A DNA stretch of 64,000 nucleotides, taken from NCBI GenBank assembly GCA_964600045.1, contig CAZRHS010000001.1, positions 11,046 through 75,045 on the forward strand, given 5' to 3'. The stretch comes from an uncultured Clostridium sp. (GTDB lineage Bacteria > Bacillota > Clostridia > Christensenellales > CAG-138). Below the pieces are notes generated by a model. It was given only the letters and a program-made list of their open reading frames with translations, searched no databases and had not been told where the DNA came from. This document shows, one piece after another, positions 30,585-60,186 of the stretch; the first letter of the stretch is position 1, and each line of letters begins with the position of its first letter. A program made the translations under genes and the position numbers.

Positions 30585-31229
30585 TTACTTAATGGGGAAA
30601 TTGAAATAGGTGTCCGGATAGGGCTCGGGGTTAACATTGTAGTGCCACCATTCGCCCTCATAAAGCGTCATGCCCGCGCCGAGCATGGCATCCCTCAGTA
30701 TTGCGCGGTTCTTTTCCTGCTCAGGCGTAAGCCCTGCGGCGCCGTGGTTTGAGCGGGGGTCCATATAGTCGAATATAGAGCCCATGTCAAGCTCCTGATG
30801 GGTGTTCATGTCAACTATCGTAAGGTCAACGGCTTTGGCCCTTGTGTGGCCGGAGCGGCGGGCAATGTAGCCCTGGCTGAAAACTTCCGCCTTGTCAAGG
30901 TTGGGGTACTGTATGCTCTTGCGGCGAATGTCCGAAATGTCCTCGCCCCAGCGGCAGAAGTCGTCCACCGCGCTCTGGGGACGGTAAGCGTCAAAGAATT
31001 TCATAATGTAGCCCTGCTTGCGCAGTGTTTCCGCGGCCTTTACGCAGCAATCCGCAAGGGCCTTGCTCATAACAACCAGCGGCTGCTCGTAGCCCGCGGC
31101 GGGGCGGCCCATAAAGTTATCGGTTCCGGCGTATTTAGCGTCTATTATGCAGTCCTCAATCAGCTCGTCTATGTATACAAAGCCTTCGGGCAGTCCGGCC
31201 TTGGGTATGCCGGCGGTACTTGTGTTCAT
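30585..31229 (-). CDS. ddpX: D-alanyl-D-alanine dipeptidase (M15D, VanX/DdpX family)
   Basis: 214 aa. Colinear with VanX as recalled: DAKYAGTDNF, YRPQSAV, SGHTRAKAVDLT (SxHxxGxAxD), EWWHY, PYPDTYFNFP. Confidence 0.85.
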   Translation of the reverse strand: MNTSTAGIPKAGLPEGFVYIDELIEDCIIDAKYAGTDNFMGRPAAGYEQPLVVMSKALADCCVKAAETLRKQGYIMKFFDAYRPQSAVDDFCRWGEDISDIRRKSIQYPNLDKAEVFSQGYIARRSGHTRAKAVDLTIVDMNTHQELDMGSIFDYMDPRSNHGAAGLTPEQEKNRAILRDAMLGAGMTLYEGEWWHYNVNPEPYPDTYFNFPIK

Positions 31230-39273: not shown

Positions 39274-40995
39274 ATGAAGAGAATTGGGGCGATTATTTTG
39301 GCGCTTACGATGGCGCTTGTCAGCGTGCCGGCTCTTGCCGAAAAGGCGGACCGGGAAATTGAAGGCAACCTTGCCGTTATAACAACCGCCGAGGAATTCG
39401 CGGCGGGTACACTTGAAAACGTGGTTACCGACGAAACCATAGGCGATGGCGCGATAGTGCTTGCCGAGGGCGCAACTGAGGGCGTATACACGAGCGAGGT
39501 GCTCGGTACCGTTCCCTTTGAATACATGGTAGCCTTCTGGGGCGCGGATACTCCCGACGGCACTTCAATAGACGTTTCCGCCCGCGCTTATGTGGACATG
39601 AATAAAGAATGGACCGAGTGGCTCAGCTGGGGCACCTGGAGCAGCAGCATAAAGCGCTGCTCTGTTTCAGAGGATACCACGGCCGCCTATATGGATACCG
39701 ATACGTTTACAATTCGCGGCAGCTCCGGCGAAACCGCCAGCAAGGTTCAGATAAAGGTTACCCTGCGCGCGAACGAGGACGGCGTATCCCCCACCGTAAG
39801 GCAGGTTGGCGTAACGTATAAGAATACGCTTGAAGGCCAGGAAATAACCCCGCTCTATTACGGCGAAGAGGTTGAGCTGCCCGAAAAGGTTGTGCTCGAT
39901 ACCCCCGCTTATTCCCAGACGGTGCGTGAGCCCGGCATCGGCAGCGTAATGTGCAGCGCGACCACCATCTGCGTTATGCTTAACGACCGCGGCGAGGATC
40001 TGCTCCCCGAGGAAATAGCCCTTATTGACTACGATTGCGATTACGACGGCTTTGGCAACTGGTCCTTCAGCGTTGGCGCCGCGGGCAGCATGGGCTACGA
40101 GGTATATCTTCAGTACGCCGATCTTAACATACTCCGTCAGGAGCTTGCGCACGGCTACAGCGTGGGCATAAACGTTAAGTATTCTTCCAGCCCCAACGGC
40201 CAGTATCCTTATCTTGAGGGCGGTGCTTCCAGCAGCACCGGCGGCCACCTTATAACCATAACCGGTTATGAAACGATAGACGGCGTTGAATACTTCTATT
40301 CAAGCGACTCCGCCGCCGGCAGCGACCCGTCCTGCGTAAAGTGCTATAAGGCCGATCAGCTTGATGCCGCCTGGACAAAGAAGCTTGCCTATATAATCCA
40401 CGATAAGGAAGAAAACGTAAATTCCATCAACCCCAACCGCATCGCGGCGGAGCTTGTGAGCGCAGGCGAGAATGAATACACCCTTACCGTAAACGGCGAG
40501 GCGGTTCAGATAAACAAGAGCTTCACCGCCGCCAAGTGGAACAAGGACGGCTGCGGCATAATCGCCTACTATCTTGAGGGTGAGGACGCAAGCACCGTTA
40601 CAATGCCCGAAAAGGTAAAGACCACAACGGCCAACAACGTGTTCCGCTATACAATAAAGGGCAACGAGAACGGAAACCTTACGATTAAGTCCTCCTCCAT
40701 AATGGGCGGCCTTACCAAGCCCGCAACGCTGCACCTGTTCGTAATGACCAACAACGGCACTACCTACACCGCAAGCCTTGAGCTGCAGCCCAACCCCGTT
40801 GAGGAAACCCCCGCTCCTACCGAGGAACCCACCGCTACCGAAGAAGTAACGGCAACCGAGGAGCCCACCGCTACCGAAGCCCCCGCCGAGGAAACCTCAG
40901 GCGGCCTTAGCACCGGAGGAATAGTGGCGATAATCTGCGCCGTTGTTGCCGCGCTGTGCGGCGCGTTCGTTGCGCTTAAAAAGAAGAAGCAGTAA
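39274..40995 (+). CDS. Secreted, C-terminally membrane-anchored protein with a C39-like (papain-fold) peptidase domain
   Basis: 573 aa. Signal peptide MKRIGAIILALTMALVSVPALA. Candidate Cys in GIGSVMCSATTICVML and His in STGGHLITITGYE. TEEPTATEE repeat linker and a final TM helix followed by KKKKQ. Confidence 0.55.
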   Translation: MKRIGAIILALTMALVSVPALAEKADREIEGNLAVITTAEEFAAGTLENVVTDETIGDGAIVLAEGATEGVYTSEVLGTVPFEYMVAFWGADTPDGTSIDVSARAYVDMNKEWTEWLSWGTWSSSIKRCSVSEDTTAAYMDTDTFTIRGSSGETASKVQIKVTLRANEDGVSPTVRQVGVTYKNTLEGQEITPLYYGEEVELPEKVVLDTPAYSQTVREPGIGSVMCSATTICVMLNDRGEDLLPEEIALIDYDCDYDGFGNWSFSVGAAGSMGYEVYLQYADLNILRQELAHGYSVGINVKYSSSPNGQYPYLEGGASSSTGGHLITITGYETIDGVEYFYSSDSAAGSDPSCVKCYKADQLDAAWTKKLAYIIHDKEENVNSINPNRIAAELVSAGENEYTLTVNGEAVQINKSFTAAKWNKDGCGIIAYYLEGEDASTVTMPEKVKTTTANNVFRYTIKGNENGNLTIKSSSIMGGLTKPATLHLFVMTNNGTTYTASLELQPNPVEETPAPTEEPTATEEVTATEEPTATEAPAEETSGGLSTGGIVAIICAVVAALCGAFVALKKKKQ

Positions 40996-44985: not shown

Positions 44986-46575
44986 ATGGAAAACAGCGTG
45001 GCTGAAAAGCCGGCTAAGAACAAAAAGAAAACGCTTACAATCGTCCTGCTGTCGCTGCTGGCGGCGGTAATAGTGCTGGGCGGAATATTTCTTGCGCTTA
45101 AAATAAAGGCGGACAAAGAGGAAGAGGAAAGGCAGAGCCTGCTCAACTCCGGCGTGTTCTATACGGGCATAACCGTAGGCGGCGTGGACGTGAGCGGCAT
45201 GAGCATGGATCAGGCCAAGGAAGCCCTTAAAGAGGCTGAGGAGAAGCTGACCGAGAACGTGGGCTTTACCGTAACCGACGGCGAGCATACCTATACGATA
45301 GACAAAAGCTTTTTTGACATATCATATAATACCGAAGAGAAGCTTGCCGAGGCCATGGCCGAGGGTCGTGACGACTCGCTTACGCTTGAAGAGCTTAAAA
45401 ACGGACTTAGCGACATAGCCGCAAACGGCCGCAGCTTTGATATTGAGTATACCATTGCCGCGCCGGACTTTACTGAATTCGCGGCAGGCATAGCGGCCGA
45501 AATAAACGTTGCTCCCGTGGATGCCACGTTCAGCGTGAAGCAGCTTGAAATGAACGAGGATACGGACGCGCTCAACGCCGTTAATATAGGCATTGCCGAT
45601 GACGATACCGTAACCGACATTAGGGATTTGAGGTTCGATTTTGTTGAGGGCGTACCCGGAAGCGGCCTTAACGAGCAGGCGCTTATAGAGGAGCTTACCT
45701 CCCGTACCGAGGCGCGCGATTTCGGCACCGTTGAATTCACAAGCGAAACGATAGAGCCTGAGGTTACCATAGCCACCATTAAGGAAACGCTTGTCCTGCG
45801 CTCAAAGGCTTATACAAGCTATGCCAAGGGTCACTACGGCCGGGCGGAGCGCGTGCACAACATGACCAAGGCCTGCGGCCTTATGTACGGCACCGTTCTT
45901 CAGCCGGGCGAGGTTTTCTCCTGCAACACCCTTCTTGGCGACAGGTATGAAAAATACGGCTGGCAGCTTGCCCCCGCGGTTATAGAGGGCGGCGCAAGCA
46001 CGGAGGATCAGCCGGGCGGCGGCGTTTGCCAGGTTAGCACAACGGTTTATAACGCCGTGCTTATGGGAGATTACGAGGTTGTATACCGCCAGGCCCATTC
46101 AAGCAGACTAAGCTACGTTCCCGGCGGACTGGACGCGACCATAAATACCGGCACCATAGACTTTAAGTGGAGCAACAATACCTCTTCACCCATTTACGTA
46201 TTCACCTGGATAGATACCGAGCAGAAGCGTGTATGGTGCGAAATATACGGCGAGCCCTTCGGCGAGGATGCGGGCTTTGACGAAATAGAGCTTATAAGCG
46301 AAAGATTGCCCGATATAGAGCCCACCGCCGATGAATACATAACCTATTCCGGCCTTATCGAGCCCTATTGGATGCTTAAGAACGAGGCTAAGACCGGATA
46401 CGTATACGATACGTATAAATCCTATAAGCTTAACGGCGTTGAGGTAAAGCGCGAGAAGATAGCCAATACCATTTATCGCATGCATCCCAGGCGCTACTAT
46501 GTGTGGCCCGGCTACGTTGCGGGCACTGCGCTGCAGGCCGAGTATCAGCTGCCCCTGCCGGAAAAGACCAACTGA
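44986..46575 (+). CDS. VanW family protein (N-terminal TM anchor, PG-binding-like region, VanW domain)
   Basis: 529 aa. VanW core ..PGEVFSCNTLLG..QPGGGVCQVSTTVYNAVL..YRQAHS.. Confidence 0.8.
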   Translation: MENSVAEKPAKNKKKTLTIVLLSLLAAVIVLGGIFLALKIKADKEEEERQSLLNSGVFYTGITVGGVDVSGMSMDQAKEALKEAEEKLTENVGFTVTDGEHTYTIDKSFFDISYNTEEKLAEAMAEGRDDSLTLEELKNGLSDIAANGRSFDIEYTIAAPDFTEFAAGIAAEINVAPVDATFSVKQLEMNEDTDALNAVNIGIADDDTVTDIRDLRFDFVEGVPGSGLNEQALIEELTSRTEARDFGTVEFTSETIEPEVTIATIKETLVLRSKAYTSYAKGHYGRAERVHNMTKACGLMYGTVLQPGEVFSCNTLLGDRYEKYGWQLAPAVIEGGASTEDQPGGGVCQVSTTVYNAVLMGDYEVVYRQAHSSRLSYVPGGLDATINTGTIDFKWSNNTSSPIYVFTWIDTEQKRVWCEIYGEPFGEDAGFDEIELISERLPDIEPTADEYITYSGLIEPYWMLKNEAKTGYVYDTYKSYKLNGVEVKREKIANTIYRMHPRRYYVWPGYVAGTALQAEYQLPLPEKTN

Positions 46576-46775: not shown

Positions 46776-47228
46776 GTGCTGATTGGCTGCTTCGAACATA
46801 ATATGGACAGCAAGGGCAGGATAATAATTCCCGCCAAATGGCGCTTGGATCTGGGGGCGCGGATAATCGTAACCTGCGGCTTTGCGCGTAAGGGCGAATA
46901 TCAGTGCCTTATGGGTATGTCCGAAGAAAGATGGATGGCCTTCGTAAACGCCCTTCAAAACGTGTCTCTTGCGGATGTGGTTGTTCAGAAGGCGATAAGA
47001 AAGGTTTCGGCATACGCGTGCGAGTGCGAGCTTGATAAGCAGGGCCGCGTGCTGATATCCCCCAAGCTTAGGGAAATGGCATTGCTTGATGGGGACATAA
47101 TGCTTGCCGGCGCCAATAACCGCATAGAAATCTGGAACCGCGACAAGTGGAACGCCGAGATGGACGATGAAACCGGCTTTGATGACGAAACGCTGCTTGC
47201 GCTTACAAGGATACAGAACGGTATATGA
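46776..47228 (+). CDS. mraZ: Transcriptional regulator MraZ
   Basis: 150 aa from a GTG start. Two MraZ/SpoVT-AbrB repeats: DSKGRIIIPAKWR and DKQGRVLISPKLR. Confidence 0.9.
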   Translation: MLIGCFEHNMDSKGRIIIPAKWRLDLGARIIVTCGFARKGEYQCLMGMSEERWMAFVNALQNVSLADVVVQKAIRKVSAYACECELDKQGRVLISPKLREMALLDGDIMLAGANNRIEIWNRDKWNAEMDDETGFDDETLLALTRIQNGI

Positions 47229-48163
47229 GCGAGTTTAAGCACATTCCGATAATGCTTAATGAGGTTATGAGCCTAATTAAGCCCGAGCGCGGCGGAATAT
47301 ACGCGGACGGCACCTTAGGCGGCGGAGGGCACAGCGAAGCGATACTGAAAGCATTGCCCGAGAACGGAAAGCTTTACGGCATAGACCGGGACATGGACGC
47401 CATAAGCGCCGCAACAAAGCGGCTTGAGCCATTCGGCGATAAGTTCACGGCTCTTCACGGCAACTTCTTTGATATGAAGCGGCTTATGCAGGAGCAGGGC
47501 GTTGATAAGCTTGACGGGATACTGATGGACCTTGGCGTTTCATCGTATCAGCTGGACGCGCCGGAGCGGGGCTTTTCCTATAAAGAGGACGCGCCGCTTG
47601 ACATGAGAATGGATAAGAGCGCGCCGTTTAGTGCCTATGACGTTGTGAACGGATACACGAGCGAGCAGCTTTTCATAATAATAAAGGACTACGGCGAGGA
47701 GCGCTACGCATCAAGAATAGCGAACGCCATAGTTCGAACCAGGCAGGAAAAGCCGATTGAAACAACGCTTGAGCTTGCTAACATAATTGCCCGCAGCATG
47801 CCGGGCGCGGCAAGGCGGGAAGCACAGCACCCCGCGAAGCGAACGTTTCAGGCGATACGCATAGAGGTAAACAACGAGCTTGGCGGGCTTGAAAAGGCGA
47901 TAGAGGACGCGCACGACCTGCTTGCTCCCGGCGGAGTGATGGCGGTTATAACGTTCCATTCGCTGGAGGATAGGATTATAAAGCAGGCGTTCAGGCGGTT
48001 TGAAAAGCCCTGCACCTGCGATCCGCACGCCCCGGTTTGCACCTGCGGCAAGGTGCCCACGGCAAGGATACTTACAAAAAAGCCCCTTACGGCGGGCGAG
48101 GATGAGCTTGAATACAATCCCCGCGCCAGAAGCGCAAAGCTTAGGGCAATAGAGAAGATTTAA
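47225..48163 (+). CDS. rsmH: 16S rRNA (cytosine1402-N4)-methyltransferase RsmH
   Basis: 312 aa. HIPIMLNEV, DGTLGGGGHS, DLGVSSYQLD, ITFHSLEDR. ATGA overlap with mraZ. Confidence 0.95.
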   Translation: MSEFKHIPIMLNEVMSLIKPERGGIYADGTLGGGGHSEAILKALPENGKLYGIDRDMDAISAATKRLEPFGDKFTALHGNFFDMKRLMQEQGVDKLDGILMDLGVSSYQLDAPERGFSYKEDAPLDMRMDKSAPFSAYDVVNGYTSEQLFIIIKDYGEERYASRIANAIVRTRQEKPIETTLELANIIARSMPGAARREAQHPAKRTFQAIRIEVNNELGGLEKAIEDAHDLLAPGGVMAVITFHSLEDRIIKQAFRRFEKPCTCDPHAPVCTCGKVPTARILTKKPLTAGEDELEYNPRARSAKLRAIEKI

Positions 48164-48175
48164 TTTTTTAGGACG

Positions 48176-48742
48176 GTGAAAGCAATGGAGGCAGCTGCAA
48201 AGAAAAAACAGAATGTATACGCACCATCAAGGGTGTATTCATATTCAAACGCGGCTACCGCGGAAAAGCTTAACTACGGCGAAGAGGAATACATTCCCGC
48301 GCAGATACCGCGCACGGAGCCTAAGCGCCACGCCGCCCCGCAAACCCGCATTATAAGGGAAGCAACGCCCGCGGCCAAGCGAAAGCAAAGGCTGCTGCCA
48401 AAGCTTGTGAGCGTGGTTGGCGTGCTTACGATAGCGGCGATAATGATAGGCCTTGTTTTCAGGTACGCGACAATAGCAAGCGCGTATAAGGCCATAAACA
48501 GTACCGAAAGCAGCATAAAGGAAAGCCAAAGAAGAATTACGGAGCTTGAGGTTCAGCTTGACGAGGCGGTAACGCTTGAGGAGGCTAAACTGGCGGCGGC
48601 CGAGGCGGGGCTTAATTACCCCACGGCGGATCAGATAGTAACCGTTAACGGAACGGTAGGCAAATATATGAACGATACGGCAACGACCGAAACGGAAAGC
48701 GAAACCGAGCCGGACGGGGGTACGGCAGGCAGCGAGTCATAA
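48176..48742 (+). CDS. ftsL: FtsL-like cell division protein (single TM + coiled coil)
   Basis: 188 aa. The dcw position after rsmH, a TM helix LVSVVGVLTIAAIMIGLVF, and then a short coiled coil (IKESQRRITELEVQLDEA). An alternative start is ATG 48185. Confidence 0.55.
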   Translation: MKAMEAAAKKKQNVYAPSRVYSYSNAATAEKLNYGEEEYIPAQIPRTEPKRHAAPQTRIIREATPAAKRKQRLLPKLVSVVGVLTIAAIMIGLVFRYATIASAYKAINSTESSIKESQRRITELEVQLDEAVTLEEAKLAAAEAGLNYPTADQIVTVNGTVGKYMNDTATTETESETEPDGGTAGSES

Positions 48743-48796
48743 GTGGCTTGAGCGCGGAGTGCGACGGCTGATAAAACAAAAAAGGAGGGCGCAGCC

Positions 48797-50914
48797 TTGG
48801 ACGCACCGGATGCTTCTGAAAAAAAACGGCTTAAAATAATGCTGTGTATAATACTGGGCCTGTTCCTCCTTCTTTGCGCAAGGCTTGTGAAGATAATGGT
48901 GATAGACGGCGAGGAAATGACGGAGAAGGCCGAATCACAGCAAACGAGAAACACGCTTTTAAGCGCCACCAGGGGAAAGATAATAGATTCAACCGGAACG
49001 GTGCTCGCAAGGAACGCCACGGCATATAAAATAGTGGTTTGGCCCCAAAGCATAAAGGCGGACGAACGCGAAAGGGTAGCGAGGGAGCTATCCAATCTGC
49101 TCGATATGGATTACGCCAAGGTGCTTGAGCGAATAAGCTCGGATAAACAGGAAATTATACTTGCCCGCCAGGTAGAGCGGGAGATTGTTGATAAAATAGA
49201 TTCCATGAAGCTTGGCAGCGGCGTAGGCACGGCCATAGACACAAAGCGATACTATAGCTCCGGCGCGCTTTTCGCTCAGCTTTTGGGATTCACCACCGTG
49301 GACGGCGAAGGCCAGGCGGGACTTGAGCAGAAATACGACGAGTATCTTGCCGGCACACAGGGCCGCACAATAGCGGAAACGGACGCCAAGGGCAACGCGC
49401 TTGCTTACGGCGTGGAGGAAACGATAGAGGCTACGGACGGCGACGATATAATACTTACTACCGATGCCGTAATGCAGAGCGCGCTTGAAGAAGCGTGCGC
49501 CGAGATGCTGGAGGTTAACAACGCCGAAACCGTGCAGGGCATTATAATGGACTGCACCACGGGAGAAATAAAGGCCATAACCACCCAGCCGGACTTTGAC
49601 CCCAACTCCCCGCCAAGAAGCGACATGACGCTTTTAAGCTCCGTTATGAGAAACCGCGTTGTGGCGGATTCGTTCGAACCGGGAAGCGCGTTTGAGCTTA
49701 TAACCCTGGCGGCGGCGCTGGACAGCGGCACCGTAAATACGGAAACGAACCTTACTTGCACCGGAAGCTCAGACAAGAGCGGAAACGACGTAACCTGCTC
49801 AAAGCGCGGAGGGCACGGCGCCCAAACGCTTGAACAGGCCCTGCAGAACGGCTGCGATACCTGCCTTGCGGACATTGCGCTGGACATAGGAACGGAAACG
49901 TTTTATGACTATTTGTACTCCTTCGGGTTCGGCTCCTCAACGGGCAGCGGAATAAACGGGGAGAGCGCGGGCAACGTAACCCACCAGAAATACGTTACAA
50001 AAAGCGTGCTTGCCCGCATAGGAATAGGCGAAGACATAGAGATAACGCCCATTCAGCTTGCCTCGGCCGTATGTGCCGCGGTAAACGGCGGAAACCTTAT
50101 GCAGCCCTATGTGGTTGATAGAATTGTCGCGCAGGACGGCACGGTGGTGCTGCAGAATAGCCCCACGGTTGTAAGAAGGGTTATAAGTCAGGGAACCTCC
50201 GCGCTTGTAAGGCAGATAGCCCAAAGCATGGTAAGTGACGGCAGCTGCAAAAACGCGGCCGTACCGGGATATGACGTTGGCGGCATGAGCGGCGTTTCGT
50301 ATTCATCCGATGATGCCGGCCTTACCGTTTCATTTATAGGCTTTGCCCCCGCGGACGATCCGAAGTACGTTTGCCTTATATTGGCGGACGGGGCGCAGGT
50401 TGGCGAAAAGCTTGGCAATTACGCCGCGGCGCCTTACTTCAGGCAGGTTACGGAAGAAGTGCTTATGTATTCAGCCTATCTTCCCGAGTCAACCGTAGGC
50501 AGTGTGCTTTTGAGCGACGTTACCGGAACAACCGTAGCCGAGGCCAAGAGCGCGCTTAAGGAGCTTGGGCTTGAGGTAATAACTCAGGACGATGAAAACG
50601 AGCTTGTAACGGCCCAGGTGCCTGCCGCAGGTTCATCGGTTAAGGCGGGAAGCCCGGTGCTGCTATATACGGTTATGACATCCGCCCAAACCTCAAATGG
50701 GGTAAGCGAAGAGGACGAAACCGTAACGGTTCCCGATGTTCTTGGCAAAACAAGGCTTGCCGCGAGCGACGCGCTCAAGGCGGCAGGGCTTACTATTAAA
50801 ATAGATCCGCCGGATCAATCCGGCAAAGCTATAAGGCAGTCCCCCGCAGCGGGGGAATCGGTACTTAAGGGTACCGAGGTGCTTGTTGAATTTTCTGATA
50901 CGGGAATAGGCTGA
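48797..50914 (+). CDS. Class B penicillin-binding protein homologue (PBP2B/SpoVD/FtsI-like, 2 PASTA) with degenerate catalytic motifs
   Basis: 705 aa from TTG, after AAGGAGG. TM anchor, PBP dimerisation domain, transpeptidase fold and two C-terminal PASTA repeats. The motif positions read SAFE / GCD / MSG instead of SxxK / SxN / KTG (see findings). Confidence 0.85.
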   Translation: MDAPDASEKKRLKIMLCIILGLFLLLCARLVKIMVIDGEEMTEKAESQQTRNTLLSATRGKIIDSTGTVLARNATAYKIVVWPQSIKADERERVARELSNLLDMDYAKVLERISSDKQEIILARQVEREIVDKIDSMKLGSGVGTAIDTKRYYSSGALFAQLLGFTTVDGEGQAGLEQKYDEYLAGTQGRTIAETDAKGNALAYGVEETIEATDGDDIILTTDAVMQSALEEACAEMLEVNNAETVQGIIMDCTTGEIKAITTQPDFDPNSPPRSDMTLLSSVMRNRVVADSFEPGSAFELITLAAALDSGTVNTETNLTCTGSSDKSGNDVTCSKRGGHGAQTLEQALQNGCDTCLADIALDIGTETFYDYLYSFGFGSSTGSGINGESAGNVTHQKYVTKSVLARIGIGEDIEITPIQLASAVCAAVNGGNLMQPYVVDRIVAQDGTVVLQNSPTVVRRVISQGTSALVRQIAQSMVSDGSCKNAAVPGYDVGGMSGVSYSSDDAGLTVSFIGFAPADDPKYVCLILADGAQVGEKLGNYAAAPYFRQVTEEVLMYSAYLPESTVGSVLLSDVTGTTVAEAKSALKELGLEVITQDDENELVTAQVPAAGSSVKAGSPVLLYTVMTSAQTSNGVSEEDETVTVPDVLGKTRLAASDALKAAGLTIKIDPPDQSGKAIRQSPAAGESVLKGTEVLVEFSDTGIG

Positions 50915-50938: not shown

Positions 50939-52381
50939 ATGCTGCTTAGTCAACTGGCCAAAGCCACCGAGTGCACGCTTGTTGGTGAGGATATAGAGAT
51001 AGCAAACATAGAATATGATTCACGCAGGGTGCATGAAGGCGATCTTTTCTGCTGCGTAACCGGAACATTTTCGGATGGCCACGCTTACGCGCCCATGGCG
51101 AAGGAGCTTGGCGCGGCGGCGCTCGTGGTTGAGCACAGGCTTGATATAGACCTGCCGCAGGTGATAGTTCCAAATACCCGCGTGGCAATGGCGGAAATGG
51201 CGGCGGCGTACTACGGCTACCCCTCAAGGGATATGAAGATGGTTGGCGTAACCGGCACAAACGGCAAAACCAGCACCACATACATGATAAAAAGAATAGC
51301 GGAGGAAGCGGGGCTTAAGGTTGGCCTTATAGGCACGATACACAACCTGATAGGCGACAGAATAATAGAAACCGAGCGCACCACCCCCGCCAGCGTGGAT
51401 CTTCAGAAAATACTGAGGGACATGAAAAACTCCGGCGTGGAGCTTGTGGTAATGGAGGTTTCGTCCCACGCTTTGGACCAGGCAAGGGTACACGGGGTGG
51501 AATTCGATATAGGCATATTCACCAACCTTACCCAGGACCATCTGGACTACCACAAAACGTTTGAAAACTACCTTGCCGCGAAAAAGAAGCTGTTTACGCA
51601 GTCCAAGCGCGCGATAGTGAACGCGGACGATCCGCACTACAAGGCCATTACCGAAGGCCTCGGCATCCCCGTAACCACATTCGGCATCAGGGAAAAGGCC
51701 GATTTTACCGCAAGCGATATAGAGATTACAACGGCCGGCGCGCAGTTCACCATGAACTCCCCCGAAGGCAGCTTGAACCTAAAGGTTAATATACCGGGAC
51801 TTTTCAGCGTGTTTAACGCGCTTGGCGCCGCGGCGGCGTGTACGCTGCTTGGGTTCGATGCGGACGACATAAAAGAAGGCTTAGCTAAGCTTAAGTCCGT
51901 ATCGGGCAGGCTTGAGCCCCTGCCCACGGATGGGGATTACAGCGTTTTGCTGGACTATGCCCATACCCCGGATGCCCTTGAAAACGTGCTGCGCACGGTG
52001 CGCGGCTTTGCCCGCGGCAGGGTTGTTACCCTGTTTGGCTGCGGCGGCAATCGCGACAAGGCAAAGCGCCCCATAATGGGCGAAATAGCCGGCAGGTTCT
52101 CGGATTTCCTTGTTGTAACAAGCGACAACCCGCGCGATGAGGAGCCAATGAGCATTATAAACAGCGTGCTTGAGGGCGTGAATAAATCCGGCTGCCCCCA
52201 CGTTGTTATAGAGGATAGGCGCGCCGCCATAAAATATGCCCTTGAAAACGCGAAGGAGAAGGACGTTATAGTTCTTGCCGGCAAGGGGCACGAGAATTAT
52301 CAGGAAATAGGCGGCGGAAAGCGCCACTTTGACGAAAAGGAAATTGTGGCCGAGCTTTTGGAAGAGCTGGGCAGAAAATAA
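50939..52381 (+). CDS. murE: UDP-MurNAc-L-Ala-D-Glu:meso-diaminopimelate ligase MurE
   Basis: 480 aa. GVTGTNGKTST P-loop, LDYAHTPDAL, and the DNPR motif (TSDNPRDE) typical of DAP-adding MurE. Confidence 0.95.
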   Translation: MLLSQLAKATECTLVGEDIEIANIEYDSRRVHEGDLFCCVTGTFSDGHAYAPMAKELGAAALVVEHRLDIDLPQVIVPNTRVAMAEMAAAYYGYPSRDMKMVGVTGTNGKTSTTYMIKRIAEEAGLKVGLIGTIHNLIGDRIIETERTTPASVDLQKILRDMKNSGVELVVMEVSSHALDQARVHGVEFDIGIFTNLTQDHLDYHKTFENYLAAKKKLFTQSKRAIVNADDPHYKAITEGLGIPVTTFGIREKADFTASDIEITTAGAQFTMNSPEGSLNLKVNIPGLFSVFNALGAAAACTLLGFDADDIKEGLAKLKSVSGRLEPLPTDGDYSVLLDYAHTPDALENVLRTVRGFARGRVVTLFGCGGNRDKAKRPIMGEIAGRFSDFLVVTSDNPRDEEPMSIINSVLEGVNKSGCPHVVIEDRRAAIKYALENAKEKDVIVLAGKGHENYQEIGGGKRHFDEKEIVAELLEELGRK

Positions 52382-52418
52382 ATCGAACGGGCTAAGCACC
52401 CTTTATCGGAGGAGATAA

Positions 52419-53426
52419 ATGAAGTTTGCTGTATTGGCGTTTTTAGTTTCGGCGGCCGTGACAATGCTTCTGGCGCCGGTTATCATACCGATGCTCAGGC
52501 GGCTTAAATTCGGCCAGAACGAGCGCAGCGACGGCCCGCAGAGCCACCTTACCAAGGCCGGCACCCCCACCATGGGCGGCATGATGTTCATAGCGGGCAT
52601 AATCGTGGGCACAATAGCGTTTTCGCTTAACGCAACGGAGCTTGTGCTCCCCGCGCTTTTAGGCATGGCGGCGTTCGCGGTTATAGGCTTCCTTGATGAT
52701 TTTCTTAAGGTTAAACGCAAAAATACCGTTGGCTTAAGGCCTTATCAGAAGATTATAGCGCAGTTTGTGGTTGCATTCGTGCTTGCGCTTTATGCTTACA
52801 GCTCCCCCTTCGTGGGCTCAAAGATATACCTCGCGTTCTTCAAAACCGAGTGGGATCTTGGCATATTCTATATACCGGTGATGATGTTCATCATAATCGG
52901 CACCGTTAATTCCGTAAACCTTACCGATGGCCTCGACGGCCTCTGCTCAAGCGTTTCGCTTGTATATTCCCTCAGCATGACGGCCATGTTCCTTCTTATG
53001 GCGTCCACGGCGCTTACCGTTTCAAACGCGGTGCAGTCCCAGTACGCGGCGGAGCTTGACTCAATGGCCATATTCGCGGCCTCGGTTGCCGGCGGCTGCA
53101 TGGGCTTTTTGAAAAACAATACCTATCCCGCCCGCGTGTTTATGGGCGACACGGGTTCCATGGCGCTTGGCGGGGCGATAGCCGTAATGGCCATGTTCAG
53201 CCGCAGCGTGCTGCTGCTTGCCATAATGGGCGGCTGCTTCGTAGCCAGCAGCGTTTCCTGCATACTGCAGGTTGGCTCCTATAAGCTGAGAAAAAAGCGT
53301 ATATTCAAAATGGCCCCGCTGCATCATCATTTTGAGCTTCTGGGCTGCACCGAAACCCATATAGTTTCGGCGTATACGATAGTAACCGTATTCCTTTGCT
53401 TAGTGTGCCTTCTGGCATATCTATAA
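52419..53426 (+). CDS. mraY: Phospho-N-acetylmuramoyl-pentapeptide transferase MraY
   Basis: 335 aa. Polytopic membrane protein with GTPTMGG, NLTDGLDGL, FMGDTGSMALGG, APLHHHFE. Confidence 0.95.
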   Translation: MKFAVLAFLVSAAVTMLLAPVIIPMLRRLKFGQNERSDGPQSHLTKAGTPTMGGMMFIAGIIVGTIAFSLNATELVLPALLGMAAFAVIGFLDDFLKVKRKNTVGLRPYQKIIAQFVVAFVLALYAYSSPFVGSKIYLAFFKTEWDLGIFYIPVMMFIIIGTVNSVNLTDGLDGLCSSVSLVYSLSMTAMFLLMASTALTVSNAVQSQYAAELDSMAIFAASVAGGCMGFLKNNTYPARVFMGDTGSMALGGAIAVMAMFSRSVLLLAIMGGCFVASSVSCILQVGSYKLRKKRIFKMAPLHHHFELLGCTETHIVSAYTIVTVFLCLVCLLAYL

Positions 53427-53436
53427 ATTTTTTATT

Positions 53437-53575
53437 AGGTCGTTCGGTGCGTGCGGGCGAAGCCGTGGTTCCTTGGCGCTTGGCACGGCGTGCGCTTAAA
53501 GGTTAAGACGCTTGAGACAGAGCGCGGCTCTTTTGTCTCAAGCCTCCTGACCGGCATCGAACGGCCTCTTTTTTT
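53437..53575 (+). promoter_or_regulatory. Branched structured RNA element ending in a U-tract (terminator/attenuator or small RNA candidate)
   Basis: A 13-bp closing helix, 53437-53449 AGGTCGTTCGGTG / 53555-53567 CATCGAACGGCCT (2 G-U pairs), encloses three hairpins: 53462-67/53484-89; 53495-53507; 53511-53542. It is followed by CTTTTTTT (53568-53575). Confidence 0.4.
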
Positions 53576-53603
53576 GAATTAAACGCTAAAAGCGTATATA
53601 ATA
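53574..53603 (+). promoter_or_regulatory. Possible internal promoter for murD-ftsW
   Basis: TTGAAT (53574-53579), an 18-nt spacer, then TATAAT (53598-53603), 43 nt upstream of the murD ATG. Confidence 0.35.
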
Positions 53604-53645
53604 AGATTTAATACTGACTTCAACCATAAGGGGGAGGTAAAACAG

Positions 53646-55010
53646 ATGAAAAAGAACGGAAAAAAGGCCGTGGTAATAGGCATGGCCAAAAGCGGTATCG
53701 CGGGCGCGAGGCTGCTTTATAACCTTGGGTACGATGTTACGATTAACGATATGAAAACGGATATTCCGGGCCTTGAGGAAGCGCTTAGCGGCGTTGAGTA
53801 CACCAATGCCCTGGGCGTTGACCACGCGGAGGCCGTAAAGGGCGCGGACCTTGTTATGCTAAGCCCCGTTGTGCCTATATTCAGCCCATTTGTTGAGCAG
53901 GCACGCGCGGCGGGCGCGGAGGTTATAGGCGAAATAGAGCTTGGCTACCGCTGCTCAAACCGCGGAACAAAGTTTATATGCATAAGCGGCACAAACGGCA
54001 AAACCACAACCACAGCCCTTACCGGAGAGCTTTTCAAGGCGGCCGGGAAGCACACATTCGTGCTTGGCAACATAGGCGTTCCCATAACGGCGCACGCGCT
54101 TGAAACAAAGGAAGGGGACTACGTTGTGGCGGAAACGGCGGCGCTTCAGCTTGAGAGCATACAAAGCTTCCACGCAAACGCATTCGGCATGCTGAACATA
54201 ACCGAGGACCATCTGAACCGCTTCCAGTACAAGATGGAGAATTACATTGCCGCCAAATGCCGCGGCTTTGAGAACCAGACTGAGGACGACTTCGCCGCGC
54301 TCAATTACGATGACCCGATAGTGAGGGACATGGCAAAGCTTACCCGCGCGCGCGTACTCTATTTTTCGCAGGAAATCGAGCCTGAAAACGGCGCGTTCAT
54401 ACGCTCCGGCAGGATTATATTCCGCCTGGACGGCAAGGAAACCGACCTTATTGCCACGGACGAGCTTAGAATACCCGGCAAGCATAATATAGAAAACGCG
54501 CTTTGTGCCGTTTGCCTCGCTATGTGCCAGGGACTTGACGCGGATGCCGTAAGACGCGGGCTTAAGGAGTTCCCCGGCGTTGAGCACAGGATTGAGTTTG
54601 TTCGCGAAAAGGACGGCGTGGCCTGGATTAACGATTCCAAGGGCACAAACCCGGATTCAACCATAAAGGCCGTGCAGGCCATGACAAGGCCCACAATACT
54701 TCTCTTAGGCGTTGGCAACTACGATAAGAAGAGCGACTTCACGCCGCTGTTTGAGGCCTTTGACGGCAAGATAAAGGCCGTTATAGCAAGCGGGCTCAAC
54801 GTGCCCGCCATACAGCGCGCGGCGGAGAAAACGGGCTATTCCCCCGTTTATGTAAACGACGGCCCCATGATAGATATGCTTAAGCAGGCGCAGAGCCTTG
54901 CCGAAAGCGGGGACGCCGTGCTGCTTTCCCCTGCGGCCGCAAGCTGGGGCATATACGATAACTATGAGCAGCGCGGTGAAATATTCAAGGATCTTGTAAA
55001 TAAGCTTTAA
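53646..55010 (+). CDS. murD: UDP-MurNAc-L-alanine:D-glutamate ligase MurD
   Basis: 454 aa. N-terminal Rossmann VIGMAKSGIA and the P-loop ISGTNGKTTTT. Strong RBS GGGGGAGG. Confidence 0.95.
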   Translation: MKKNGKKAVVIGMAKSGIAGARLLYNLGYDVTINDMKTDIPGLEEALSGVEYTNALGVDHAEAVKGADLVMLSPVVPIFSPFVEQARAAGAEVIGEIELGYRCSNRGTKFICISGTNGKTTTTALTGELFKAAGKHTFVLGNIGVPITAHALETKEGDYVVAETAALQLESIQSFHANAFGMLNITEDHLNRFQYKMENYIAAKCRGFENQTEDDFAALNYDDPIVRDMAKLTRARVLYFSQEIEPENGAFIRSGRIIFRLDGKETDLIATDELRIPGKHNIENALCAVCLAMCQGLDADAVRRGLKEFPGVEHRIEFVREKDGVAWINDSKGTNPDSTIKAVQAMTRPTILLLGVGNYDKKSDFTPLFEAFDGKIKAVIASGLNVPAIQRAAEKTGYSPVYVNDGPMIDMLKQAQSLAESGDAVLLSPAAASWGIYDNYEQRGEIFKDLVNKL

Positions 55011-55038: not shown

Positions 55039-56214
55039 TTGGAGCAGGTAAGCAGCACCCCGGCGCTCAACTCCCGGGGAAAAGTACAGAATACAAGGAT
55101 GAGGCCGCTGGTTTCAAGAACAGGGCCCCTTGATTTTCCGCTGCTTATAACGGTTGTCATTCTCTGCGCCTTCGGCCTTGTTATGGTATTTTCCGCCAGC
55201 TATTATTACGCCCAGAACAAGAATATGGACAACGGCTTTTATTATCTTAAAAACCAAAGCATGTTCTTCGCGATAGGCTTCGTGTTTATGATAGGCATAA
55301 GTTTTTTTGACTACCATATTCTTGAAAAGCTTAAAACGTTTGCGCTTGTGGCAATGGTTGCGCTTATGCTGGCGGTTGTTTTCTGGGGCGTTGAAAGAAA
55401 CGGCGCCAAGCGCTGGCTGGACTTTTCAAAGCTTGGCATATCCCTTTCCTTCCAGCCTTCGGAGATGGCAAAGTTCGTGCTGGCGCTGTATATGGCCTCC
55501 TTTATGGCAAAGCGGCAGCAGCTTATGACCAGCTTCAGCCGCGGCATTATGCCCATGCTTATGATAATGGGCCTGTTCGCGGTGCTCCTGCTTGCGCAGA
55601 AAAACATGTCCATGATGGTTATAATGCTTATGACCGGCGCCGTAATGCTGTTTTTCGGCGGGGCAAGGATAAAGCACCTGCTGATACTTGCGGCCATTGG
55701 TGTTCCGGTTCTTGTAATAGCCGTTTTGATGGAGGATTACAGAGTTCAAAGGGTTACCATGTTCTGGGACCCCTGGACAAGCACGGCAAACGGCGCGTAT
55801 CAGCTGCGCCAGTCGCTTATAGCTTTGGGCTCGGGCGGCATATTCGGCAAGGGACTTAACTTCAGCCGGCAAAAGCTACTGTTTCTGCCTTACGGCGAGA
55901 GCGACTTTATATTCGCCATAATAGGCGAGGAGCTTGGGCTTGTGGGCAGCGTGCTGCTTCTTGGCGCGTACGCGTTCCTTGTATACAGGGGCATACGCAT
56001 AGCGATGCGGTGCAAGGATCGCTTCGGCAGCCTTCTTGCCGCGGGCATAACAAGCGTTATAGGCATGCAGGCGATAGTTAATATTGCCGTTGCGACAAGC
56101 AGCGTGCCTACCACGGGCCAGACGCTGCCGTTTATAAGCGCGGGCGGCACAAGCCTTGTTATATTCCTGTGCGCCGTGGGCATATTGCTTAATATTTCAA
56201 GAAACACGCAGTAG
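55039..56214 (+). CDS. ftsW: SEDS-family peptidoglycan polymerase FtsW/SpoVE
   Basis: 391 aa from TTG, after AAGGAGAG. Ten-TM SEDS pattern with QPSEMAKF, LPYGESDFIFAIIGEELG, PFISAGGTS. Confidence 0.9.
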   Translation: MEQVSSTPALNSRGKVQNTRMRPLVSRTGPLDFPLLITVVILCAFGLVMVFSASYYYAQNKNMDNGFYYLKNQSMFFAIGFVFMIGISFFDYHILEKLKTFALVAMVALMLAVVFWGVERNGAKRWLDFSKLGISLSFQPSEMAKFVLALYMASFMAKRQQLMTSFSRGIMPMLMIMGLFAVLLLAQKNMSMMVIMLMTGAVMLFFGGARIKHLLILAAIGVPVLVIAVLMEDYRVQRVTMFWDPWTSTANGAYQLRQSLIALGSGGIFGKGLNFSRQKLLFLPYGESDFIFAIIGEELGLVGSVLLLGAYAFLVYRGIRIAMRCKDRFGSLLAAGITSVIGMQAIVNIAVATSSVPTTGQTLPFISAGGTSLVIFLCAVGILLNISRNTQ

Positions 56215-56275
56215 TATATTAAATCAAATTCCGCGGCCGGCGGAGCAAGAATAAATTTGAAGGGAAAGCAAAACC

Positions 56276-57628
56276 GTGAACGGAGAAGGGAAAGAGCCAT
56301 GGCGTGATGACGAGGCCGAAATTAGGCGCCGGCTGAATCTTAGGCCCTTCAAACGCGCGGAAGAAAGCGAAGACGAGGCCTGTGAGGCCGACGAAACCGA
56401 AGACAATACCGAATATACGGACAATACGGAAGATACATTTGACGAAGCCGAAGCCGCCGAGAGCAGCGAGGAGAGCGGCGAAGACGAAGAAGAAAACGGC
56501 ACAGACGAAGAAAGCGAAGAGAATAACCAGGACGAGGAGGACGCCGAAGCGGACGGGGAGAATACCGATCCGTTTGAGGACGAGCCTTTTTTCGCGCCCG
56601 ATGAGGAAGAAGAGGAAGAACCGAAGAAAAAGAAGCGCACCGTTGGCGATGCCCGGCGCGATGACATAAAGCGCAAAAGAAAGCTTACCGAAAAGGAAAA
56701 GCGCAGAAGGCAAAGAAAGAAAAAGATAATAAAAATTGCCCTGTTCGCAACCGTGTCTGCGGCGCTTATCGCGGCCGCGGCGGTTACGTATTTTACGCTT
56801 ATTGTGGACAGCATAGAGGTATACGGCTGCACGCATTACAATGCGGAAGAGCTTATTAAGGCCTCCGGCTTAAGCGTTGGCAAGCACATGTGGCTTGAGC
56901 GGGTGAGCGAGGCTGAAAGCCGAATGGAGCAGAACGCGTATATAGCCACGGCGGACGTTATAAGGGTTTATCCGAATAAGCTTGTTGTAAACATAACCGA
57001 GCGCGAGGAGGCGGCGGTGCTTGTGGGCATGAACACGCAGGCCGTTATAGATAAGGACGGATATGTGCTGTATATAGGCGCGCGCGCCGATTACTCCGGC
57101 CTTATTCAAATATCCGGCATGGGCAGCAGCGGCTACCACGTTAACCAGAGGCTTGGCGAGGAATCGGACTTTAACTCCCGCACCATGATAACCCTGCTTG
57201 AGGCCGTGTATTCCGCGGGCCTTGAAAACGAGATAACCTGCATAGAGCTTGGCAACCCTTTGAGCATAAATATGGAAACCGCGTCCGGCGTTACAATACA
57301 CCTTGGCCAGAGCGACAACGCGGAGGAGAAGCTTGCTTCATTCAAAACCGTTTTGCCTACCCTTAAATCAATGGGCTACGCGTCGGACGGCACGCTTGAC
57401 CTGTCCGCCCAGGGAGACCCCGTATATTCACCTGAGAAAACGCCCGAGCCCATTATGACGGCTGAGCCTACAACTGCCGTTACGGATAATGCGACCACCA
57501 CGGAGGACCCGAGCGCAACGCCTACACCCACGCCGGAAGCGAACTCAACGCCCGCCGCGAGCAATTCCGCCTCGCCCGAGACTACGCCTGCGCGCACTCC
57601 GTCTCCCACGGACGCGTTCTCCGGATGA
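56276..57628 (+). CDS. ftsQ: FtsQ/DivIB-type cell division protein (POTRA) with long charged N-terminal and PT-rich C-terminal extensions
   Basis: 450 aa from GTG. An acidic then basic cytoplasmic tail, a TM helix IALFATVSAALIAAAAVTYF, a POTRA-like segment IVDSIEVYGCTHYNAEELIKASGLSVG, an FtsQ beta domain and a P/T/A-rich tail. Confidence 0.7.
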   Translation: MNGEGKEPWRDDEAEIRRRLNLRPFKRAEESEDEACEADETEDNTEYTDNTEDTFDEAEAAESSEESGEDEEENGTDEESEENNQDEEDAEADGENTDPFEDEPFFAPDEEEEEEPKKKKRTVGDARRDDIKRKRKLTEKEKRRRQRKKKIIKIALFATVSAALIAAAAVTYFTLIVDSIEVYGCTHYNAEELIKASGLSVGKHMWLERVSEAESRMEQNAYIATADVIRVYPNKLVVNITEREEAAVLVGMNTQAVIDKDGYVLYIGARADYSGLIQISGMGSSGYHVNQRLGEESDFNSRTMITLLEAVYSAGLENEITCIELGNPLSINMETASGVTIHLGQSDNAEEKLASFKTVLPTLKSMGYASDGTLDLSAQGDPVYSPEKTPEPIMTAEPTTAVTDNATTTEDPSATPTPTPEANSTPAASNSASPETTPARTPSPTDAFSG

Positions 57629-57712
57629 TAAAAATAATCAAACTTTTGTAAACGGCGTTTTGGTTTGAAATTGAAAATAAGATTGCGTTACCTGTTGCGA
57701 AATAGGTCTTAT

Positions 57713-57741
57713 TTGTGGTATGCTTTAATCAGCTATATAAT
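57713..57741 (+). promoter_or_regulatory. Possible promoter for ftsA-ftsZ
   Basis: TTGTGG (57713-57718), a 17-nt spacer, then TATAAT (57736-57741), 33 nt upstream of ftsA. Confidence 0.4.
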
Positions 57742-57773
57742 GCGCCCGGCGAATACGGCAAAGGAGGGGCACG

Positions 57774-58970
57774 ATGGGTCAGAGCACGGCAATACTCGAT
57801 ATCGGCAGTTCCAAAATCATCTGCCTCATCTGCGGCACGGACGGCCGGGGCGGTATACTGGTTCAGGGCGCGGGTATAAAGGAATACCCGGGCTATAAGC
57901 GCGGCGCGTTTGAGGACGAGCAGCAGCTTGCGGACGCGGTGCTTGATGCTTTAAGCGTTGCGGAAACCGAGGCAAGGCACAGGGTTAGGGACATTTCAGT
58001 TGGCGTTCCCGCCCCGTTTACCAAGCTTATAATGCAGCGCGGAGAGGTTGACTTTCGCGGCAAGCAGCGGCGCATAACGCACCGGGATATAGACAATGTT
58101 ATAAACGCTTCGCTTGATTTTGATGCACCGGATGGATATTCGCTTATCCATTCAACGCCCGTTGAGTTCACCGTGCAGGACGCTGTCCGTTCGGATATGC
58201 CCATAGGCGTTATGGCGGCGGGCTTTAGCGCAACGGTTTCGCATCTTTATGTTGAAGACCATTTTAAGCAGCTTATAAGCGATGCTTTGCTTAGGGTTGG
58301 GCTTGATGCGGATATGTACATTGCCGTTCCCTTGAGCGAAGGGGTGTTCGTGATTCCCGAAAAGGAGCGCGGAGAACGGGCGGTGCTTATAGATTCGGGC
58401 TTTACACATACGGATGTATGCGTTGTTAAAAACGCGGCGCTTGTGGATATGCGCACCATACCCGTGGGCGGCATGCACTTCACCTCCGATCTGGGCTACG
58501 GCATAGGCATAAAGGAAACGGTTGCCGAAAACGTAAAACGCAGGTATGTTTATTCCCTTGATTATCAGGACAGTATAGATACCATTCGCGTGCCGGGCGG
58601 CGGAACAATGTATGTTGAGCACGAGGCGATACAGTATATTATAGAAGAGCGTACAAGGGAGCTTTGCCGCCTTATAAAAGAGGCGTTTAAGGAGATGGGC
58701 GTTGAGATTACGCCAACGCTTCCCGTGTATATGAGCGGCGGCGGGGTAACGCTTATGCGCGGCTGCTGCGAATTTATGGAGAAGGAACTCGGTACGGCGG
58801 TTCAGGTGCGCATGCCCTGGATGCCCAGGCTGTCCTCACCGAACTACGCAAGCGCGTTTTCGGTAATGGACTTTGTAATGCACGCGTCCGATGAGGACAA
58901 TGCCGGCAGGCTTGAGGGCGCCGGCACCAACAAAAACGTATTAAAAAAGCTGATAGACTTATTCAAATAA
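57774..58970 (+). CDS. ftsA: Cell division protein FtsA (actin-like ATPase)
   Basis: 398 aa. [12 protein letters not shown] phosphate-1 motif, [19 protein letters not shown], and a C-terminal amphipathic helix [12 protein letters not shown]. Confidence 0.85.
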
Positions 58971-58986
58971 CGAGGAGGACATTAAA

Positions 58987-60186
<1,200 letters not shown>

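Follow-up and report, generated by a model that had tools for sequence, protein, structure and literature searches.

A class B penicillin-binding protein with a degenerate transpeptidase active site in the dcw cluster of an uncultured Clostridium: a probable pseudo-transpeptidase

The division and cell wall (dcw) gene cluster of an uncultured Clostridium sp. (Bacillota; Clostridia; Christensenellales; CAG-138) encodes a single penicillin-binding protein of class B (bPBP) in which all three catalytic motifs of the transpeptidase domain are degenerate. The gene lies on the forward strand of a 64,000-nucleotide stretch, referred to here as the window, that covers positions 11,046 to 75,045 of contig CAZRHS010000001.1 (GenBank assembly GCA_964600045.1). 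The organism is represented by metagenome-assembled genomes (MAGs) only, and its nearest named relatives are the Christensenellaceae/Christensenellales. The protein is probably a pseudo-transpeptidase that lost catalysis at the base of a single species-level clade of gut Clostridia resembling Christensenellaceae, with the polypeptide still needed as a scaffold or activator of FtsW and with cross-links provided by another enzyme.

The proposed mechanism is as follows: (i) the D,D-transpeptidase active site would have been destroyed in the clade ancestor by a burst of substitution centred on that site, followed by renewed constraint; (ii) the bPBP would still bind and allosterically activate FtsW, the SEDS-family (shape, elongation, division, sporulation) polymerase that is encoded 4 kb downstream; (iii) it would also scaffold the FtsL/FtsQ complex, its PASTA repeats helping with localisation; and (iv) cross-linking of the glycan strands from FtsW would fall to a different enzyme, either a second penicillin-binding protein (PBP) encoded elsewhere or a VanW-type L,D-transpeptidase encoded 5′ of mraZ.

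Laboratory mutants in Bacillus subtilis, Staphylococcus aureus, and Clostridioides difficile suggest that what makes the divisome bPBP essential is something other than its cross-linking chemistry. The protein described here would be the natural counterpart of such mutants, which are its closest functional precedent, with the chemistry wholly removed and the protein kept, in several lineages independently. Dead and intact orthologues, which are 60–74% identical, form sequence sets with which residues for SEDS activation and scaffolding could be separated from the catalytic ones. A further prediction is that these gut commensals, members of a family often discussed in host-health studies, possess a septal bPBP that is not a β-lactam target.

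Active site and retained fold

The bPBP gene begins with a TTG start codon, and a homologous MDAPG start is present in relatives. Its features, all on the forward strand, are listed below.

48784..48788, +, Shine-Dalgarno sequence GGAGG, 8 nt 5′ of the TTG start (sequence reading)
48797..50914, +, gene for a class B PBP whose transpeptidase active site is dead (open reading frame and translation: 705 amino acids, no internal stop)
48833..48901, +, N-terminal membrane anchor, about residues 13–35 (hydrophobic stretch inside modelled helix 6–36)
48962..49402, +, pedestal or PBP_dimer domain, residues 56–202, conserved (Pfam PF03717, E = 6e-24)
49541..50452, +, transpeptidase-fold domain, residues 249–552, catalytically degenerate and constrained (Pfam PF00905)
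49685..49696, +, motif 1, S297-A-F-E300 for S-T-F-K, the general-base Lys replaced by Glu (SpoVD alignment, codons)
49757..49816, +, predicted Zn-site ligands C321, C334, and H340 (C353 at 49853–49855), all kept (codons)
49850..49858, +, motif 2, G352-C-D354 for S-C-N, the middle Cys (Zn ligand) kept (SpoVD alignment, codons)
50285..50296, +, motif 3, M497-S-G-V for K-T-G-T (SpoVD alignment, codons)
50513..50671, +, PASTA repeat 1, residues 573–625 (best Pfam PF03793 stretch)
50720..50896, +, PASTA repeat 2, about residues 642–700 (AlphaFold2 secondary structure; boundaries approximate)

The original prediction, made from the letters of the window, had proposed a membrane anchor, a dimerisation domain, a transpeptidase fold, and two PASTA repeats, and all of these are recovered by Pfam, the translation, and an AlphaFold2 model. 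The PF00905 match spans profile positions 4–298 of 299 (E = 3e-58), and PF03793 gives two PASTA stretches (E = 1.7e-25). The closest match in the PDB is SpoVD of C. difficile (7rcz, E = 1.4e-90). SpoVD is also the top NCBIfam model (TIGR02214), although the score of 492.6 bits falls below the curated equivalog cut-off of 688. By homology, fold, domain order, and gene position, the window protein is a class B PBP of the PBP2B/PBP2x/FtsI/SpoVD group.

The full-length Pfam profile and the structure-anchored alignment to SpoVD both bear out the claim that the three motifs are degenerate, at exactly the positions first proposed (SAFE at 49685–49696, GCD at 49850–49858, and MSGV at 50285–50296). Residue by residue, gsTfK of 7rcz lies over gsAfE, nSCNp over nGCDt, and ggKTGta over ggMSGvs. 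The S-x-x-K signature is thus replaced by SAFE (NAFE in a sister sublineage), S-x-N by GCD, and K-T/S-G by MSG, and, compared with relatives, the loop that follows motif 3 lacks six residues. The lining of the cleft is altered too, GFGQS having become GIGED and GSTVAAP having become GNYAAAP. Inspection of the PF00905 motif columns, a check suggested together with the original prediction, finds no canonical SxxK, SxN, or KTG elsewhere in the transpeptidase domain of the window protein. Because all three catalytic features of the group are absent, the protein is a pseudoenzyme member of it, and its motifs predict neither covalent β-lactam binding nor D,D-transpeptidase activity.

Alignment of orthologues, proposed along with the profile inspection, sets the window protein apart from its relatives, which carry STFK, SCN, and KTGT where it departs at all three motifs, a contrast well outside what chance would give. 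EPGSTFK is found in 119 of 119 other best homologues (69–74% identity; MAGs of Christensenellales or “Clostridia bacterium”). All seven key residues are intact in 77 of 80 GTDB species representatives, a set taken from the matches listed in a genome scan with a 12-sequence alignment and biased to conserved sequences, such that the remaining 3 of 80 give no estimate of prevalence.

The degenerate motifs recur in at least 15 independent assemblies. The 90%-identity cluster of the window protein comprises 25 sequences drawn from NCBI, JGI, ENA, and Logan, and GCD and MSGV are present in all 14 that were read. Identical motif codons occur in the DNA of five independent assemblies (L001, L002, L008, L009, and L091) amid synonymous differences. 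The frame is uninterrupted and the same codons appear in independent assemblies from all four repositories, which agrees with the earlier statement that no frameshift or assembly artefact is involved. Apparent internal stops in L023 and L025 are natural stop codons at the ends of the matches.

The loss of catalytic residues has left the architecture in place: the fold, anchor, pedestal, PASTA repeats, and structural Zn site are retained in the dead bPBP. An AlphaFold2 model built from 97 diverse sequences has a mean predicted local distance difference test score (pLDDT) of 91.4 and a predicted template modelling score (pTM) of 0.80, with most of the transpeptidase domain above 95; a shallower alignment (11 sequences, at least 70% identity) gave a pLDDT of 41 and was unusable. 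Foldseek target-normalised template modelling scores (TM-scores) are 0.87 to SpoVD, 0.87–0.91 to PBP3 of Pseudomonas aeruginosa, and 0.85 to FtsI in the FtsWIQBL complex (8bh1). In anaerobic Firmicutes, bPBPs that bind Zn (C. difficile PBP2, PBP3, and SpoVD) do so through two Cys or Asp, an invariant His, and the Cys that stands for X in SXN (Sacco et al. 2022, PMC9334274). C321, C334, H340, and C353 match the ligands of SpoVD in the alignment and make up a predicted Zn site of this kind. These Cys-Cys-His-Cys ligands are conserved in 79 of the 80 species representatives and in most degenerate homologues.

Known bPBPs resemble the window protein in different respects. PBP2B of B. subtilis has the same anchor, pedestal, transpeptidase domain, two PASTA repeats, and dcw position after ftsL. 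According to work cited in PMC12516126, the PBP2B protein is required and its catalytic activity is not, with another bPBP supplying the cross-links; this source backs the comparison with PBP2B made in the original prediction. The dead form of PBP2B was made in the laboratory by a point mutation in a site that is otherwise canonical, whereas the loss in the window clade is natural, fixed in the clade, extends over three motifs and the cleft, and is under selection. SpoVD of C. difficile, the closest solved structure, shares the Cys-Cys-His-Cys Zn site with the X residue of SXN and a dcw gene beside a SEDS gene, and, given SpoVE, asymmetric division is still sustained by the catalytically inactive protein (PMC12713402). 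Native SpoVD, by contrast, retains catalysis, which cortex synthesis depends on the protein to carry out, and bears a single PASTA repeat, while the window protein has two and lacks the catalytic residues. Likeness to P. aeruginosa PBP3 (FtsI) lies in the overall fold (TM-score 0.85–0.91, including FtsI in 8bh1) and likeness to Streptococcus PBP2x in the two C-terminal PASTA repeats; unlike the window protein, these two are active β-lactam targets with canonical motifs. The degenerate LytM factors EnvC, NlpD, and DipM are cell-wall enzymes that, having lost their catalytic residues, now serve to regulate or activate other peptidoglycan enzymes (PMC10336132). They are a conceptual parallel only, having an unrelated fold and regulating hydrolases rather than a synthase, and no homology is implied.

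A natural pseudo-transpeptidase among divisome bPBPs was not found described in a literature search from which subscription journals were largely out of reach, so that an earlier description may exist. The available part of a global bPBP survey from 2025 reports frameshift pseudogenes and domain variants and, in that part, no motif degeneracy (PMC12516126).

Substitution pattern and recurrence of degeneracy

Selection was gauged from pairwise Nei-Gojobori estimates of non-synonymous (dN) and synonymous (dS) divergence and their ratio (omega), which cover few genomes and in which dS to intact relatives is near saturation. Between the window and L001, which represent two degenerate sublineages, the whole bPBP has a dN of 0.023, a dS of 0.232, and an omega of 0.10, corresponding to 37 non-synonymous and 101 synonymous differences; 21 and 49 of these, respectively, fall in the transpeptidase domain (omega 0.11). 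By region, omega inside the degenerate clade is 0.077 for the N-terminal part, 0.11 for the dead transpeptidase domain, and 0.10 for the PASTA region. The whole-gene value is similar to those of ftsW (0.12), ftsA (0.13), and vanW (0.12) in the clade; murE, mraY, and murD have values of 0.03–0.07. The bPBP has therefore been kept by purifying selection despite its inactivation, in line with the earlier proposal, and purifying selection after motif loss is what a retained non-catalytic role predicts.

The transpeptidase domain has diverged strongly from that of the intact relatives. Its dN is 0.22–0.24 between the degenerate clade and four intact relatives, compared with 0.06–0.09 among the intact relatives at similar dS. 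In a three-taxon decomposition, the window branch carries about nine times the non-synonymous change of the branch to the intact relative L003 in this domain and two to three times in the other domains, although these branch rates are only rough because dS is near saturation. A count of columns that do not vary among the four intact genomes and are altered in all three degenerate ones gives the same ranking of domains: 57 of 246 such columns are changed in the transpeptidase domain (23%), 15 of 178 in the N-terminal part (8%), and 8 of 91 in the C-terminal part (9%), for a total of 80 of 515 in the whole bPBP (15.5%). Other genes of the cluster have 2–11% of their invariant columns changed. 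The excess in the transpeptidase domain over the rest of the protein (57/246 versus 23/269) has a Fisher p of 5e-6. Within the domain, changes are enriched no more than six residues from the three motifs (17/39 versus 40/207, p = 0.002), closeness to the active site being gauged here in primary sequence, and the lineage-specific changes in the domain shift its net charge by −6. The pattern appears to be an active-site-centred burst of substitution followed by renewed constraint.

Degeneracy of this kind is not confined to the window clade. The original prediction treated the window protein as a single case, which does not hold, as there are several independent occurrences. Of the 150 top representatives of clusters at 50% identity, 12 besides the window protein are without most of the seven key residues; the nearest neighbour of each is intact, and all fall in the part of the tree proximal to the window protein. 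The degenerate share is over-represented in such a set because fast-evolving dead lineages form clusters of their own. About ten degenerate lineages are known solely as unplaced cluster representatives.

A sizeable separate clade, referred to as the SxxD clade (proteins P0306–P0339), has the motifs (S/T)-M-F-(D/E), SCN, and (I/V/F)-(T/S)-G-V and has lost both lysines. It comprises 28 clusters at 90% identity that are mutually 70–99% identical, with the nearest intact relatives at about 60%, and is found on contigs of up to 1 Mb from NCBI, JGI, ENA, and Logan. One source annotates the protein as SpoVD. This illustrates a wider need for caution, since degenerate bPBPs are labelled “penicillin-binding transpeptidase” or “SpoVD” in public records. 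The species representatives L068 (9968–12166) and L070 (9986–12187) carry mraZ-rsmH-ftsL-PBP-murE-mraY-murD clusters, and their bPBPs differ with an omega of 0.13 at a dS of about 1.3. Two more degenerate bPBPs, P0181 and P0303, are 45% identical to each other and have the motifs KLMG/GCK/MTDI and QLMD/SCN/LSNT, respectively. Each lies inside a dcw cluster with ftsW, ftsA, and ftsZ; gene calling found no MraZ-family member at the P0303 locus. The coordinates of the two deeply diverged, 45% identical bPBPs are L089 10001–12271 and L090 9464–11752; the Ser nucleophile is among the residues lost, and each comes from a single contig.

The replacements are partly shared among lineages. At the Lys position of motif 1, the window and SxxD clades, P0162, P0166, and P0303 carry Glu or Asp; at that of motif 3, most degenerate lineages carry Met, Ile, Val, Phe, or Leu. 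The window and SxxD clades also share xxGV-S for KTGT-A and Glu for the Gln of GFGQS. Elsewhere the replacements diverge, with Gly, Asn, His, or Ser at motif 1 and many states at motif 2. A broader reading is possible and is offered tentatively: loss of dcw bPBP catalysis may be recurrent, and in some lineages long-lived, in Christensenellales-like Clostridia (at least three clades in genomic context and about ten more as cluster representatives), with partly convergent replacements. The core bPBP role in these organisms would then be allosteric activation of FtsW and scaffolding, septal cross-links would routinely come from a class A PBP or from L,D-transpeptidases of the VanW or YkuD type, and the dead domain, beyond mere relaxation, may have been selected into a signalling or ligand-binding state.

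The FtsW partnership and alternative readings

The cluster runs mraZ-rsmH-ftsL-like-PBP-murE-mraY-murD-ftsW-ftsQ-ftsA-ftsZ, and the position of the bPBP gene between the ftsL-like gene and murE is shared with relatives. The genes around it, all on the forward strand, are as follows.

44986..46575, +, VanW-domain protein, 529 amino acids, membrane anchor and VanW domain, candidate L,D-transpeptidase (Pfam PF04294, E = 1e-39)
46776..48163, +, mraZ and rsmH, start of the dcw cluster (Pfam)
48176..48742, +, ftsL-like gene, 188 amino acids, membrane anchor and coiled coil, directly 5′ of the bPBP gene (by position; no Pfam match)
50939..55010, +, murE, mraY, and murD, all intact (Pfam)
55039..56214, +, SEDS glycosyltransferase FtsW/SpoVE, presumed partner, intact (Pfam PF01098, E = 7e-103)
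56276..60186, +, ftsQ/divIB, ftsA, and ftsZ (Pfam)

The ftsL-like gene is recognised by its position and by a conserved ESQRRITELEVQLDEAV segment common to all relatives. The bPBP had been described as the only one of the cluster, lying between the ftsL-like gene and murE, and this is confirmed by the gene order and by a hidden Markov model of the transpeptidase domain, which has exactly one match in the six frames of the window. No second PBP was found among the other large open reading frames of the 64 kb, and each of the 91 sources searched (loci with about 10 kb per side) likewise has one open reading frame with a transpeptidase domain. FtsW itself is full-length and not accelerated: 10 of 253 otherwise invariant columns are changed, and a long extracellular-loop region is identical to that of relatives. 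Its ESDFIF segment aligns with the catalytic HTDFVF of P. aeruginosa FtsW, and the catalytic Asp is thereby kept.

From the synteny, the intact FtsW, and the published laboratory catalytic mutants, we infer that the partnership with FtsW is the role that has been retained. The conserved anchor and pedestal lend this partnership further indirect support. Such a role for a dead bPBP is plausible because B. subtilis and C. difficile still divide with a canonical bPBP that has been catalytically inactivated, as long as that protein and its SEDS partner are both there (PMC12516126, PMC12713402). Several points weigh against this interpretation. The link between the bPBP and FtsW consists of synteny and analogy; the selection estimates are pairwise and draw on few genomes, and the rates on the stem branch are rough. 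The ftsW gene is not adjacent in L068 and L070, where the cluster ends after murD. The omega of 0.11 in the dead domain is close to that of the rest of the protein, a level of constraint that may exceed what a passive spacer requires and that would accommodate a newly acquired binding role. Lastly, the presence of Ser297 beside Glu300 in the window sublineage may leave scope for Ser/Glu chemistry. As evidence on the partnership, the missing adjacency in L068 and L070 is uninformative, since the cluster is also split after murD in some intact species.

The strongest alternative, although a rather unlikely one, takes up the observation on constraint and holds that the dead transpeptidase domain has been repurposed, either as a regulatory module that binds a ligand such as a stem peptide or a divisome protein without turnover, or as a domain locked in an FtsW-signalling conformation, with a new surface under selection. 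The return of the domain to strong constraint after the burst, the directional character of the lineage-specific changes (net charge −6), and the partial convergence with independent lineages (an acidic residue for the motif-1 Lys, a hydrophobic one for the motif-3 Lys, xxGV-S, and Glu for the Gln of GFGQS) would all fit such a change of function. Yet the quite different replacements in other degenerate lineages are those of simple relaxation, no candidate ligand is known, and the need to fold between the pedestal and the PASTA repeats could by itself give an omega of 0.11.

It is improbable that the protein is still an enzyme using non-canonical chemistry, with either Ser297 and Glu300 as general base or the lineage-specific Cys residues C356 and C484. 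The window protein does have Ser297, a Glu at the Lys position, new Cys residues at 356 and 484 (the latter a lineage-specific Gly-to-Cys change), and a domain under purifying selection. However, Asn (AAC) occupies position 297 in 5 of the 14 cluster members read, which form a sister sublineage about 95.5% identical to the window protein; the nucleophile has hence been lost there too, and the rest of the protein is equally constrained. The window codon for Ser297 is a secondary AGC (49685–49687), whereas the catalytic Ser is encoded by TCN in 80 of 81 intact relatives. Since a switch between TCN and AGC needs a non-Ser intermediate or a double hit, Ser297 is best read as a drifting state rather than a conserved nucleophile, and the codon implies that position 297 has already passed through a non-Ser state. 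The proton-relay and substrate-carboxylate motifs, all three, have been lost together, and the cleft-lining GFGQS and GSTVAAP elements have changed as well. To our knowledge, no serine PBP (penicilloyl-serine transferase family) functions without both lysines, which also counts against a non-canonical enzyme.

Slightly less probable still is a relic on its way to loss, for instance a sporulation-specific SpoVD orthologue in a lineage that has abandoned sporulation, its intact frame reflecting recent inactivation. SpoVD is the top NCBIfam model, though below cut-off; the whole protein is somewhat accelerated on this lineage, from which the dcw copy of murA has been lost too; and in C. difficile the dcw SEDS-bPBP pair is specific to sporulation and a class A PBP drives division (PMC12539705). 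Against a relic stand the intact frame in every assembly and the excess of synonymous over non-synonymous differences since the sublineages split (101 versus 37, where neutrality would give a ratio of about 1:3). The SxxD clade has kept the gene across a dS of about 1.3, and intact orthologues in close relatives occupy the same single-bPBP dcw position.

Although every genome is metagenome-assembled, an origin of the substitutions in sequencing, assembly, or binning is effectively refuted by the same motif codons, surrounded by synonymous differences, in independent assemblies from four sources, and base-calling error cannot explain 80 lineage-specific amino-acid changes and a 6-codon deletion.

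Candidate cross-linking enzymes and other genes of the window

A retained bPBP that cannot cross-link makes a question testable: which enzyme cross-links the product of FtsW if its own bPBP is unable to do so? A class A PBP can drive septal synthesis in Clostridia, as the case of C. difficile shows (PMC12539705). An obvious candidate in the window is the adjacent VanW-type protein (44986–46575). VanW domains have been shown to be L,D-transpeptidases, and 3-3 cross-linking is essential in C. difficile (PMC11348318). The protein contains a GGGVCQVST motif with its Cys, and orthologues give a weak PG_binding_4 signal. Its gene lies directly 5′ of mraZ only in the window clade and its closest relatives (at least 69% identity), intact sisters included. 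It would be an equally good candidate for the alternative cross-linker as another PBP elsewhere.

The dcw cluster differs from that of intact relatives in a further gene. In all close intact relatives, murA (EPSP_synthase family) lies between ftsW and ftsQ (L003 17223–18482, L005 17494–18750, L006 17466–18755, and L007 17503–18759), and it is missing from this interval (56215–56275 in the window) in every degenerate-clade genome. Loss of murA was rejected as a general correlate of transpeptidase loss, as several distant intact species also lack the gene at this place. In MraY (52419–53426, +), 27 of 267 otherwise invariant columns are changed and a loop is shortened by three residues; the substitutions are conservative and fall in membrane helices, and the catalytic motifs remain in place.

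Other genes of note are scattered over the window. A VanX-like D-Ala-D-Ala dipeptidase (Peptidase_M15, E = 1e-42) is encoded at 30585–31229 (−). The protein of 326 amino acids encoded at 21029–22009 (+) belongs to the PF00144 “beta-lactamase” family; it carries an S-L-T-K motif, lacks an obvious signal peptide, and probably acts in the cytoplasm as an esterase or aminopeptidase, not as a wall transpeptidase. A candidate peptidoglycan hydrolase with two PG_binding_1 repeats and an NlpC/P60 domain is found at 9360–10643 (−). Finally, a Peptidase_C39_2 protein of 573 amino acids, encoded at 39274–40995 (+), is conserved 5′ of uvrD/pcrA in all relatives.

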